From: an uncultured Nitrospiraceae bacterium | GTDB lineage: Bacteria > Nitrospirota > Nitrospiria > Nitrospirales > Nitrospiraceae | Assembly (NCBI GenBank): GCA_963730935.1 | Contig: CAVSTP010000002.1 | Location: 800,001 to 864,000, forward strand | DNA length: 64,000 nt | Direction: 5' to 3' | Part shown: positions 30,001-33,000 of the stretch, piece by piece | Position numbering within the stretch: the stretch's first letter is position 1 | Layout: each line of letters opens with the position of its first letter | Made by a program: the position numbers

Positions 30001-33000
30001 GACGACGGCGGTTTTGGCAATGACGTAGAGGACCAGTAGAGCAAGAAAGAGGACGACAAACGTACCAGCTGACATGCTTACCTCCTCCATCGTCACTAAC
30101 CTATAGACTGTGAAAAGCGTGCGAGGTGTCGCCGTGACAGAGTTCGTTTTGGCCTATCGCTCACCGTCGAGCGCGCGACTACTCGGTGGTAATCCAGAGC
30201 GTCAACCCGTCGACTTTTGTCACCTTCCCTCGCTGACCCTTGCGAAAGTCGGTTGGACCCACATTTTTCGCTGTCCAGGTGCTGCCACGCAGTTCCGCTC
30301 TTCCGGTCGCGCCGGCTGGCAAAGCCTCCAGAGGAATCACCACCTCGCCGACCATCGAGTCCACATGCGCATGTGCATCGCGGCCGTCACTCATCCGTGC
30401 CAGCAACGGACCGCGGAAGATGAGCAGCGAGCCGATGGCGATCACAGAAAAGAGCAACCATTGCAACCAATCCATGCTGACGACCTTGAGCCCGGCCAAG
30501 GTACCTACGAGCAGGGCAGATAAGCCAAAAAATAGAATGTAGAAGCCGCCGGGCGTCGTCATTTCAGCGCCCAGCAGTGCTAGACCCAGAACCATCCAAT
30601 ACCACCAGACCATGTGGAAACCTCTGAAAATCAGGCGCGGTGCGGTAGGGCGACGAAATGTTACGGAAGTCTAAGCGCCTTGACCATGACCGTCAAGCAG
30701 AAGGACGCGTTCCGAATGGTCAAGGCCCACGGGCTTTTGCGCCAGCCTCGTGATATAGTCCGCGCGCAATGGCCCAAGATCAACCGGTCGCCGCCTTGGT
30801 CGTCGCGCTCACTGGAGAGATGGCTCCAGCCGTGTATTCGATCAATCGGCTCCGTCCGGAAGCCCTCTGTTTCGTCCTGCCAGACTCGGCAAAGGCGCTC
30901 GTGGAAACAGACGTCCAGCCTCGGATCAGCCAAATGCCGCGCCGCTGGGATTGGGTGCTGGTCTCGGATCCGGACCACTTTCCTAGCTGTTACCAGACGG
31001 TCGCGCGGTCACTTCCTGCAATGCTTCGCACCTGGGAAGTCGATCCAGGAGCACTGGTCGTGGATGTGACCGGTGCCACTGCAGCCATGGCCGGCGCCCT
31101 CGTCCTTGCTGCGACGCCGTTCACGTCCCGCATCGTGTCCCTGATCGAGCCCAAGGAGGGACGCGAAGGCGATGCTGTCACGCTCGAAGGCGGGGAACGT
31201 CTCTGGATTTCGATGAATCCGTGGGATGAAGGCGCCGAAAGCGTGAGGCGGCAAGGCTACGAACTTTTCAACCGTGGCGCATTTGTGGCCGCGGCAACCA
31301 TCTTCCGTCAAATTGAAAGCCGCGTGAGCGGTGGGCAGAAGCCGCTCTATCGCGCCTTGGCTGATCTTGCCGAGGGGTATGACCTGTGGGAGCGCTTTCA
31401 CTATCGTCAGGCTTGGGAGAAGCTGAAAGGCGCCGTCAAGGCGATGGAGATGGCGTCATTGTTCGGAGGGCCGCCGGGACTGAAAGCAGGAATTCCGGCG
31501 ATTAAAGCCAATGCCGGTTTCTTGGAAAAACTCGTTCTGGATCCAGCCGACGTCAAGGAACTGCTCCCCTTTGAGTTGCTGGCGCATGCGGGCCGACGGC
31601 TTCGCGTCGCGCATGATACGGAGGCGGCCATGCGGGCGCTGGCGCGGGCGCTGGAAGGCTTTGGCCAATGCCGTCTCTTCAAGCAATACCACATCAAGAC
31701 GTGGGACGTTCAGCCGGACCAACTGCCGCAGGCGCTTCAAGAGACCTGCCGCACCTGTTACCTCCAAGACATCGATGGCAAATACGTGCTGCCTGCGCAG
31801 GCGCAATTCCGTCTGTTGGCCGCACTGGACGATCCGATGGGCCACACGTACCTCAAGGAGTGGCCGATAATGAAGCCGTTGCTCGATGCCGCCAACCATG
31901 CCGTGCTGGGTCATGGGTTTGACACGGTCAAGAGCGAGCGGGTGCAGCAATTATATGACGTGGTCGTCAGACTGACGGGAATTCAAGACGGCTCGTTGCC
32001 AAAATTTCCCGTTCTCACCTTGTAGTGCCTGGATCCTTGCAAGCGCTCCCATGCTCTCTCGCCACGCATTGTCATTGGGCTTATGAGCAGGACAAGGTCT
32101 CCCATCATCAGGGGATGCGGGTATGTCCTGATTGCAGGCATCCTATACCTCTCGCTGTTTCCCGGTATCTATGTTGTCAGTTCTCTGTTGCTCACCAAGG
32201 GCATTGCGCTGCGGCCAAGATTGCTGCGAGATTTCCAAATGGATTTCTACAACGATCGTGGGTACAGAAAAATCTGGCAAACGCAGAAAGACTGCATTGA
32301 ACCAGACGATCGATTGATTTACATTCCGCGTCTGGGGAGTTGTCACTTTACGAACGCCGAATTTGACACAATCTTGCACTTTGAAAGCGAAGGCCGTGTC
32401 AGAAACAGCATGCCCAAACAGCGTTCTGAGATCGGCATTGCGGTCTTGGGAGATTCCTATGCCATGGGATGGGGAGTCAACGATCGTGAAACATTCGCCA
32501 ATGTTCTTCAGGAGGAATTGAAAAGGCCTGTCTATAACCTTGCTGTCTCAAGCTATGGAACCGTGAGAGAGCTGTTCCGTTTGGAACGATCAGGGTTGAT
32601 CGACAATGTCGATACGATTCTCGTTCAATATGCGGCAAATGATTTCATGGAGAATGCAGCCCTGGATCAAGAGGACAAGTTCCTTCAGGCCAAGGCTCTG
32701 TTCCAGGAAACGCTCAATAGAGAGCGAAGCTCGAGCGATCACAGCATGCTTGAATCGCTCCGCCGCGCCGTCTCCTTTGCGATTGAAAAGCCCATTCGGA
32801 ATCTCCGAGATCTACTCGTTCCTGCGACGAAGCAAAATCAGTTTGCGCCCCACTACCAATACCTGATGCCGGTCTTGAAACGATTCGGCCCGCTCATAGA
32901 CAGGAAAAGAGTCGTCGTCTTGTCCGTGGACGAACCAGGCTTTGAGGACTTTCCGCGTGGCAAGGACCAGACCATGAGCAACGTAGAATTTGTCGATCTG

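Follow-up and report, generated by a model that had tools for sequence, protein, structure and literature searches.

A Csm6 homologue that has lost the residues of both its functional sites is retained outside CRISPR in a nitrite-oxidising bacterial order

What does a protein of the Csm6 type do in a genome without a CRISPR system? The question is raised by a gene at 30769..32025 (+) of the window, that is, the whole stretch of 64,000 nucleotides analysed here, from an uncultured Nitrospiraceae bacterium. The 418-aa product had been described as a Csm6-type CARF-6H-HEPN protein in the genome-wide survey's note, and this was borne out by the open reading frame, family searches and structure comparisons. 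The protein matched the Pfam families Csm6_6H and Cas_Cas02710 and scored 136.5 bits against TIGR02710 (cut-off 83.9), and its clade was nested among the canonical members. The top structural match of its AlphaFold model (pLDDT 96, built from 106 sequences) was Thermus thermophilus Csm6 (Foldseek E 1e-13), with Z 21.9 and rmsd 6.4 over 376 aligned residues, and the likeness to this enzyme (5FSH, 8JBB, 8JBC, 8JH1) covered the whole CARF-6H-HEPN length (profile E 5e-22). The domain order was that of Csm6 and the TIGR02710 CARF-HEPN RNases: a CARF domain (residues 1-150; 30769..31218, +) with an intact fold, a 6H helical domain (151-262; 31219..31554, +), which was the best-conserved domain among orthologues, and a HEPN domain (263-418; 31555..32022, +), whose fold was also intact according to Pfam and AlphaFold. 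A search of the ESM Atlas returned only clusters of the Csm6 type, and an Rfam search of the window gave no match. The PADLOC profile PDLC01812, "CARF1--CARF_HEPN" (418 positions), matched the protein from end to end (E 2.5e-222), so the subfamily had been clustered previously; the double site loss described below is not mentioned in the labels of TIGR02710, PF09670 and PF22205, or PDLC01812.

The HEPN motif (31891..31914, +) carries Ala375 at the position of the catalytic arginine, as the note had stated, followed by a variable Asn376 and a mostly retained His382. Among 114 orthologues the arginine was found in none, the asparagine in 71 and the histidine in 105, and Glu296 was retained in 113. 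In a smaller alignment, the arginine was present in 0 of 50 orthologue rows and in all 115 canonical rows. Identity over the six HEPN site columns was 0.39 compared with 0.97 in canonical members. The suggestion that another basic residue might substitute gained no support, as neither lysine nor arginine occurred at 372-376 in any of the 114 orthologues and one of them stood at position 377 in only 14. Thus, the R-X4-6-H catalytic motif was not found. Since the R415A, N416A and H422A mutants of T. thermophilus Csm6 are each without RNase activity (PMC10897365), RNA cutting by the 418-aa protein has, by analogy, very probably been lost.

The CARF pocket was degenerate as well. With the residue register set by profile alignments to 8JBB and 5FSH and by further alignments, T15-G16-E17 (30811..30819, +), a mostly acidic position in orthologues, corresponded to motif I, G58-T59-S60 of T. 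thermophilus Csm6. In motif II (31063..31083, +), Ala103 and Ala105 took the places of G135 and K137, and the equivalent of T133 was retained. The former mobile lid loop (residues 124-143; 31138..31197, +) had lost its Tyr/Arg contacts and become acidic, and it was the least conserved stretch of the protein. The note had held that the CARF ligand-loop motif is kept; instead, the motif II lysine was absent from all 114 distinct orthologues, and the motif I glycine was found in 3, the motif I Ser/Thr in 1 and the motif II glycine in 5. The pocket tyrosine and the lid arginine were likewise found in none of them, while T/S101 was retained in 107 and N150 in all 114, with Ala103 in 103 and Pro105 in 87. 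The smaller alignment gave the motif II lysine in 0 of 50 orthologue rows versus 114 of 115 canonical rows; both motifs were intact in 99-115 of these 115. The net charge of the CARF domain was -6.1 against a comparison value of -1.8, and the pocket had turned acidic. Twelve pocket columns showed an identity of 0.32 in 16 diverse orthologues, compared with 0.51 for the whole protein, and columns 15, 16, 124, 127, 130 and 143 reached only 0.12-0.22; in 50 canonical members the same twelve columns stood at 0.83 compared with 0.33 overall.

In T. thermophilus Csm6, K137A abolishes cA4 binding, and the T59A/S60A, K137A and lid mutants are each without RNase activity (PMC10897365). The 418-aa protein lacks the equivalents of G58, S60, T81, G135, K137, Y161, the lid arginines and R415, and neither G-T/G-S/T at motif I nor T-x-G-x-K at motif II was present, which suggests that its CARF pocket no longer binds cA4. 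The CARF ring nucleases Crn1 and Sso2081 resemble it as stand-alone CARF proteins that do not act as effectors, but their function requires motifs I and II, in common with canonical Csm6; these motifs, the tyrosine and the basic lid residues are all lost here. It is highly likely that the protein is disarmed at both sites and, on the evidence that follows, still functional.

The distribution of the gene was independent of CRISPR. No match to Cas1, RAMP, the Cas10 palm, mCpol, SMODS or DAC was obtained in the own genome, and no CRISPR array was detected by a finder that recovered 114 repeats in the control L095; the absence of arrays and cas genes reported earlier was thus confirmed. Across the order, the gene was present in 136 of 151 genomes (66 of the 67 other genomes of the family), while the Cas10 palm was found in 16 (12 above cut-off). 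All 16 of these carried the gene, and 120 of the 136 carriers had no Cas10 match. Of the earlier description as a core single-copy gene, near-core occupancy stood and strict single copy did not: four genomes had a second, canonical copy, and four single-contig genomes were cleanly without the gene. The gene was only 28% identical to these canonical copies, which lay 12-19 kb from cas10 where they were seen in Nitrospirales (G092, G104, G252). The range of 72-92% identity given for Nitrospiraceae applies to the best 120 of 1161 matches; orthologues in the species genomes of the family were 45-70% identical. Matches labelled as CRISPR-associated CARF proteins in Nitrospira hence do not signal type III immunity, and their annotation should be corrected.

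In the tree, the stand-alone clade received an SH-aLRT of 95, and its basal members had intact sites. The loci of these deeper relatives had different neighbours, which we take to be rho, an NAD kinase-like and a murJ-like gene. As the deeper relatives are stand-alone and intact, CRISPR was left behind first and disarming came later. Intact stand-alone, partly decayed and fully disarmed stages are all present among the relatives, so the order of exaptation can be tested by comparing natural homologues.

The gene occupies a fixed site. An extended -10 promoter-like element, TG-n-TATAGT (30751..30759, +), stands 9 nt before the ATG; it lay 6-11 nt before the start in 89 of 93 distinct orthologous loci and at 9 nt in 62, whereas a looser version at 5-10 nt was found at only 24 of 5413 candidate ATGs genome-wide. 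Because a Shine-Dalgarno site has no room after the -10 element, the mRNA is probably of the leaderless type, made from a sigma-70 promoter. A ybgC-type acyl-CoA thioesterase gene (33139..33558, +) is the usual downstream operon neighbour, on the same strand in 85 of 96 loci. In this genome a GDSL-type gene (32083..33126, +) lies between the two, outside the conserved unit, with about 50% GC in surroundings of about 60%. Upstream, the divergent cluster of nfeD, SPFH, gmhA and a GSU2086-family gene (27509..30613, -), preceded by a sigma-70-like promoter (30668..30696, -), marks the chromosomal site (74 of the 96 loci have gmhA, 69 have GSU2086); it fixes the position of the gene, and no functional role was read from it. 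As partners gmhA, GSU2086 and ybgC were rejected, since they are kept or lost independently of the gene and the deeper relatives have other neighbours.

The gene is under purifying selection. Its median dN/dS was 0.108 (34 pairs), compared with 0.096 for gmhA, 0.114 for dinB and 0.146 for ybgC, and its tree length in one genus was 3.40, compared with 2.91 for Mfd; only one full-length orthologue had an internal stop. The protein is also abundant in two cultured species with published proteomes, where gene order and size (in N. marina also the TIGR02710 label), not sequence, served to identify the orthologue. In N. moscoviensis, NITMOv2_4618 gave 31 unique peptides and ranked 735 of about 2,788 detected proteins, at twice the level of ClpX, with one peptide in five membrane digests. 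In N. marina, gene 2597410449 gave 18-36 spectra in 6 of 6 samples (log2 change -0.36). This steady expression, like the missing type III locus, sets the protein apart from T. thermophilus Csm6. Both sites are lost, yet the gene is kept and its protein made steadily, so it seems to have taken on a new everyday job. The earlier reading of a domesticated, CRISPR-independent Csm6 kept as a housekeeping-type gene is thus supported by distribution, dN/dS, promoter and proteomes. Contigs of four metatranscriptome libraries spanned parts of the gene, and such contigs show neither transcription, strand nor level.

Conserved residues particular to the clade may mark new surfaces, where "surface" is read from the polarity of the canonical alignment columns. 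A helix and turn at 213-237 (31405..31479, +; R213, W216, K218, K220, K224, G233-P235) is a candidate binding surface. A conserved loop at 185-194 (31321..31350, +; R185, S187, G188, G189, K191, Y194) is common to the intact stand-alone relatives and not to canonical members, and E46, Q50, W60, D61 and W62 are newly conserved in the CARF domain. The basic and aromatic residues of 6H and HEPN could form such a surface, although the clade-specific residues may reflect only shared ancestry. Among the conserved charged positions acidic residues were as frequent as basic ones (12 and 12 of 43), so RNA is not singled out. A CxxC at 327-330, considered as a metal site, had Cys327 in 110 of 114 orthologues and Cys330 in 102, but was missing from several divergent members.

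On balance, the probable explanation is a domesticated pseudo-enzyme, a disarmed Csm6. A type III CRISPR Csm6 (TIGR02710/CARF1 type) would have reached a fixed chromosomal position in an ancestor inside the Nitrospirota with both sites working, and cA4 binding and RNA cutting would have gone later. The protein is produced steadily, probably from the leaderless-type sigma-70 promoter, and purifying selection keeps it for a job that would draw on the fold and on the new basic and aromatic 6H/HEPN surfaces. A role as a macromolecule-binding scaffold is a little better than evenly likely: the soluble protein, a homodimer if it resembles T. thermophilus Csm6, would bind RNA, or a protein that handles RNA, as part of the cell's housekeeping RNA metabolism. 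Inactive HEPN proteins have a precedent in MtlR and the HEPN domain of Swt1, which keep the fold without the catalytic motif and, according to PMC3710099, are proposed as non-catalytic binders or regulators; they belong to other HEPN families, without a CARF domain or CRISPR origin. A CRISPR accessory nuclease would thereby have entered the near-core proteome of a whole nitrite-oxidising bacterial order.

Other explanations were weighed against this one. The note had proposed a housekeeping sensor or sponge whose ligand, a cyclic-oligoadenylate-like or other nucleotide, comes from an enzyme other than Cas10. The intact CARF fold, the retained T/S101 and N150 and the near-core distribution without Cas10 agree with it, but the cA4 contacts are gone and the acidic pocket is conserved below the protein average, which makes the proposal very improbable. 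Searches for mCpol, SMODS, DAC and Cas10 gave no cyclase that tracks the gene: mCpol occurred in 3 of 151 genomes, SMODS and DAC had no match in the own genome, and the neighbours are housekeeping genes. Nor would a CRISPR-independent CARF pathway be new in kind, given RtcR (PMC7790460). The cleft might instead have been remodelled for a cation, a polyamine, a basic peptide or an RNA end. A precedent is RtcR, whose divergent CARF recognises tRNA halves that carry a 2',3'-cyclic phosphate (PMC7790460, PMC9650030), and E46, Q50, W60, D61, W62, Ala103 and Pro105 are conserved; a new ligand should, however, fix pocket residues, and the six most variable columns named above make this unlikely.

Residual or altered catalysis by His382 and Glu296 in a HEPN dimer, free of cA4 gating, is decidedly unlikely. 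Both residues are widely kept, and some HEPN families without the arginine retain the histidine (PMC3710099), but R415A and N416A each kill the activity of T. thermophilus Csm6, the histidine is replaced in 9 and the asparagine in 43 of the 114 orthologues, the HEPN columns have drifted, and high steady abundance is a poor match for an ungated RNase. Even less probable is a permanent check on type III systems that enter the genome, with canonical Csm6 made less toxic by dimerising with the dead subunit: every Cas10-positive genome carries the gene and four have the canonical copy to pair with, yet most carriers lack Cas10, 16 of 16 is not notable beside 120 of 135, and the identity to canonical copies is low. 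That the gene is a functionless relic within the ybgC operon is barely credible. It is dispensable in the four genomes that lack it, and in G112, from which it is absent, the promoter motif persists before ybgC; against this, its dN/dS is below that of ybgC, ybgC is lost while the gene stays, orthologues are free of stops but for one, and the protein is abundant. The dN/dS and tree-length analyses thus largely refute this idea.

For the disarmed scaffold, the candidate pathway with the best support is RNA repair, in which broken RNA would be rejoined with the ligase RtcB. Of the 15 genomes that lack the gene, 9 have no RtcB either, compared with 9 of the 136 carriers. Genus g10 shows 3 inferred losses of the gene, all within a clade that had lost RtcB and that accounts for 20% of the at-risk branch length. 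Outside this clade, 3 losses of ybgC left the Csm6 homologue in place, and within it three control genes persist in 5 of 5 genomes. The g10 pattern goes back to a single RtcB loss and would look the same for any further gene that disappeared on the same branch. A link to RtcB specifically is accordingly doubtful, and it is similarly tentative that a dead Csm6 dimer serves as an RNA-repair cofactor which captures broken RNAs (2',3'-cyclic-phosphate ends made by HEPN nucleases) or binds RtcB. Captured ends would be handed to RtcB in nitrite oxidisers, and the homologue would become dispensable after RtcB loss.

RtcR offers a parallel as a divergent CARF protein that works outside CRISPR and is tied to RtcB, with tRNA halves (PMC7790460) and the RtcA/RtcB proteins (PMC9650030) as binding partners. 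Encoded next to rtcBA, RtcR carries AAA+ and HTH domains and acts as a sigma-54 activator, unlike the present 6H-HEPN protein of Csm6 descent, which has no such fusion and whose gene is far from rtcB, on another contig in its own genome. If true, the RtcB lead would provide a second, independent link between CARF and RNA repair. Several observations count against the lead. In N. moscoviensis the Csm6 homologue is roughly fourfold more abundant than RtcB. Five genomes without RtcB and archease retain the gene, and in the RtcB-less carrier G261 no relaxed selection was seen, with no clear acceleration (ratio 1.18, range 0.80-1.19). RtcB was present and the gene absent in two f35 genomes, and RtcB was common in families without the gene. 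Two sampled genomes of genera g11 and g15 kept the gene together with a shorter RtcB type that has no adjoining archease.

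The gene at 30769-32025 (+) encodes a CARF-6H-HEPN protein of 418 aa with the Pfam domains Csm6_6H and Cas_Cas02710, and its TIGR02710 score was 136.5 bits against a cut-off of 83.9. The structure predicted from a 106-sequence alignment reached a pLDDT of 96, and the best structural match of this model was T. thermophilus Csm6. As the genome-wide survey's note had stated, the genome lacks CRISPR: no array and no match to Cas1, RAMP, Cas10 palm, mCpol, SMODS or DAC was found in the assembly (99.9% complete). Among 151 genomes of the order Nitrospirales with a completeness of at least 90%, the gene was detected in 136, namely 66 of the 67 others in its own family and 60/66, 9/14 and 0/3 in the other three families. 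The Cas10 palm was detected in 16 of the same 151 genomes, in 12 of them above the cut-off. The single copy claimed for Nitrospiraceae did not hold throughout the order: four genomes, each also carrying Cas10, had a second, canonical copy with intact motifs. The claimed identity of 72-92% across Nitrospiraceae applied to the best 120 of 1161 matches, whereas the orthologues found in the family's species genomes showed 45-70% identity.

The residues were then compared with those of T. thermophilus Csm6. According to the accessible part of PMC10897365, the cA4 site of this enzyme comprises G58, T59 and S60 (motif I), T81, T133, G135 and K137 (motif II), Y161, N164 and the mobile lid residues R172, R173 and E179; cA4 binding was wholly lost in K137A, and RNase activity was abolished by R415A, N416A or H422A. 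The register was obtained by profile alignments to 8JBB and 5FSH and transferred to the window protein via two further alignments. The motif I position was T15-G16-E17, Pro38, Ala103, Ala105 and Ser124 replaced T81, G135, K137 and Y161, and Ala375 occupied the position of R415. The motif II Lys was present in 0/50 orthologue rows compared to 114/115 canonical rows, the HEPN Arg in 0/50 compared to 115/115, and the motif I Ser/Thr in 0/50 compared to 99/115. None of 114 distinct full-length orthologues had the CARF Lys, the Tyr, the lid Arg or the HEPN Arg; T/S101 (107), N150 (114), H382 (105) and E296 (113) were retained, and the mean net charge of their CARF domain was -6.1 versus -1.8. Judged from these alignments, the residues of the cA4 pocket and the HEPN site are both lost, not those of HEPN alone; the earlier report of an Ala at the HEPN Arg was thus borne out, while that of a kept CARF ligand motif was not.

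The constraint on the pocket columns is the decisive test for the pocket: had it been rebuilt around another ligand, its columns should be fixed rather than drift. In 16 orthologues less than 72% identical, the mean pairwise identity was 0.32 over the twelve pocket columns compared to 0.51 over the full length, with the greatest variability in the lid. The same columns in 50 canonical members gave 0.83 compared to 0.33. This drift speaks against a rebuilt pocket, and with the pocket residues lost, the proposed sensor or sponge of a nucleotide ligand is not supported.

A 77-sequence tree placed the stand-alone proteins in a single clade of 33 within the canonical family (SH-aLRT 95, FastTree 0.996). 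Its basal members, from the family f16 (loci L040-L042), had every motif intact and housekeeping-gene surroundings; as Cas10 was above cut-off in 4/11 f16 genomes, these proteins may act in trans. Decay was graded: the lid was shorter in loci L043, L044 and L105, motif I was changed, and the HEPN Asn or His was substituted in L107, P0006 and L043. The HEPN Arg was lost at least two times independently, in P0007 and on the branch to P0003, L110, P0011 and the Nitrospirales. These results indicated that the gene left CRISPR before losing its sites, and that the function kept needs neither. In fold and ancestry the window protein descends from the TIGR02710/Csm6 family, but it lacks the catalytic, ligand and context features that define membership. 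Two Manganitrophus-type homologues were broken near residue 60-90 (L162 6001-7247; L109 1000-2247), while others of this type were intact, in which the CARF Lys and the HEPN Arg are retained and Asn is replaced by Glu. The 72%-identical homologue P0268, labelled as cyanobacterium Petrachloros, and locus L165, labelled Nitrosospira, look like Nitrospira sequences carrying other labels.

The median dN/dS of the gene was 0.108 (34 locus pairs), compared to 0.096 for gmhA (23), 0.114 for dinB (13) and 0.146 for ybgC (28); the pairs were not all independent, a few genomes being present twice. With identical topology in genus g10, its tree length was 3.40 compared to 2.91 for Mfd. Orthologues, assigned by gene order and size and not by sequence, were detected in two proteomes. 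As far as the available parts of PMC8407350 go (Table S1), NITMOv2_4618 of N. moscoviensis (46.0 kDa; window protein 46.2 kDa) lies between ybgC and an nfeD-sized gene of the same cluster and was represented by 31 unique peptides and 139 spectra (rank 735 of ~2,788 detected ORFs). Its abundance was twice that of ClpX, with nearly none in membrane digests and an RPKM slightly under the median, and the seven CRISPR-labelled rows of the table were all type I genes. In the accessible part of PMC8115632, the N. marina gene 2597410449 (420 aa, TIGR02710 label, adjoining gmhA) had 36, 30, 26 and 30, 18, 22 spectra in two oxygen treatments, a log2 change of -0.36 in a comparison whose significance was assessed for increases only. 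The gene is functional despite the loss of both sites, and the suggested domestication is supported by the dN/dS, the detected proteins and a single site, and extends from the family to the order.

At that chromosomal site, gmhA (74 of 96 loci) and a GSU2086-family gene (69) lie divergent to the gene, and ybgC (85) follows downstream. An extended -10 element lay 6-11 nt upstream of the start codon in 89/93 distinct loci (62 at 9 nt), so near that the mRNA is probably of the leaderless type. In the window's own genome, TAnAnT hexamers peaked 5-10 nt before candidate ATGs (85/5413 versus ~5 per position farther upstream), and starts of the leaderless type appear to form a minor class there; in related loci, similar -10 boxes lay close to the starts of gmhA and nfeD. 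The gene is dispensable, being absent without remnant from four single-contig genomes, where mobile or defence genes occupy its site. In g10, the site adjoining gmhA was a hotspot of such cargo with or without the gene (L090-L093, L241); we take this cargo to be Fic-like, methylase-like and nuclease-like genes, with a Cas9-like gene in genomes G340 and G261. In many Nitrospiraceae, a gene of 117-143 aa, presumably of four-helix-bundle type and of at least two sequence types, separated the Csm6-type gene from ybgC as an insertion (L051, L053, L055, L060, L128, L161). The GSU2086-family gene (27509-28513), beside gmhA, gave weak deoxyhypusine-synthase-like matches; its protein was highly conserved and detected in both proteomes. 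At 36401-37864, the ORF before a barstar gene (Pfam) has a C-terminal region that may resemble a barnase-type RNase.

Conservation was concentrated in 6H and at the outer positions of the HEPN domain. The residues that the stand-alone clade shares but canonical members seldom have include the 185-194 loop, W216, K218, K224, G233-P235, E253, W365, K369, K388 and R391. W216 was found in 114/114 and W365 in 112/114 orthologues, at positions with mixed or polar canonical residues, and conserved acidic and basic positions were equally numerous. Such new invariant aromatic and charged residues suggest a putative macromolecule-binding surface. PADLOC profile PDLC01812 (418 positions) matches this very subfamily (E 2.5e-222), and the name 'CARF1' presumably stems from the 2020 CARF classification. 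No description of the subfamily was found in the accessible literature on TIGR02710, Nitrospira CARF, CRISPR-associated proteins in Nitrospira proteomes, or stand-alone or inactivated Csm6; a remark in the 2020 classification is possible. The available parts of a 2022 exaptation essay (PMC8730458) and of the 2025 classification (PMC12669027), the latter containing neither 'Nitrospir' nor '02710', do not mention it. From the sources as far as accessible, CARF signalling outside CRISPR (PMC7790460) and inactive HEPN binders are already known kinds.

Given the RtcR precedent (accessible parts of PMC7790460 and PMC9650030), RtcB was examined as a partner. It was present in 133/151 genomes and absent from 9/15 without the gene compared to 9/136 with it (Fisher p 2e-6, a significance exaggerated by kinship and draft gaps). 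On the g10 Mfd tree (38 genomes, status for 36), RtcB loss mapped to the base of a clade of seven genomes. The three inferred losses of the gene all fell within this clade, which makes up 20% of the at-risk branch length (p ~0.008 if three losses, 0.04 if two). Outside it, ybgC was lost three times with the gene kept, and three control genes were present in 5/5 tested genomes of the clade. However, the g10 pattern is one RtcB loss, and it would look the same for every other gene lost on this branch. G261 lacks RtcB and retains the gene with no clear acceleration, and five genomes without RtcB and archease keep it. Moreover, two genomes of family f35 have RtcB without the gene, RtcB is common in families without it, sampled g11 and g15 genomes have a shorter RtcB type, and the N. 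moscoviensis orthologue is ~4x as abundant as RtcB in the available data of PMC8407350. A functional link to RtcB is a lead that we consider unlikely to hold. The archease gene directly preceded a long (~480 aa) RtcB in most sampled Nitrospirales (L183-L202), and in two genomes of g11 and g15 RtcB was ~410 aa with no adjoining archease.
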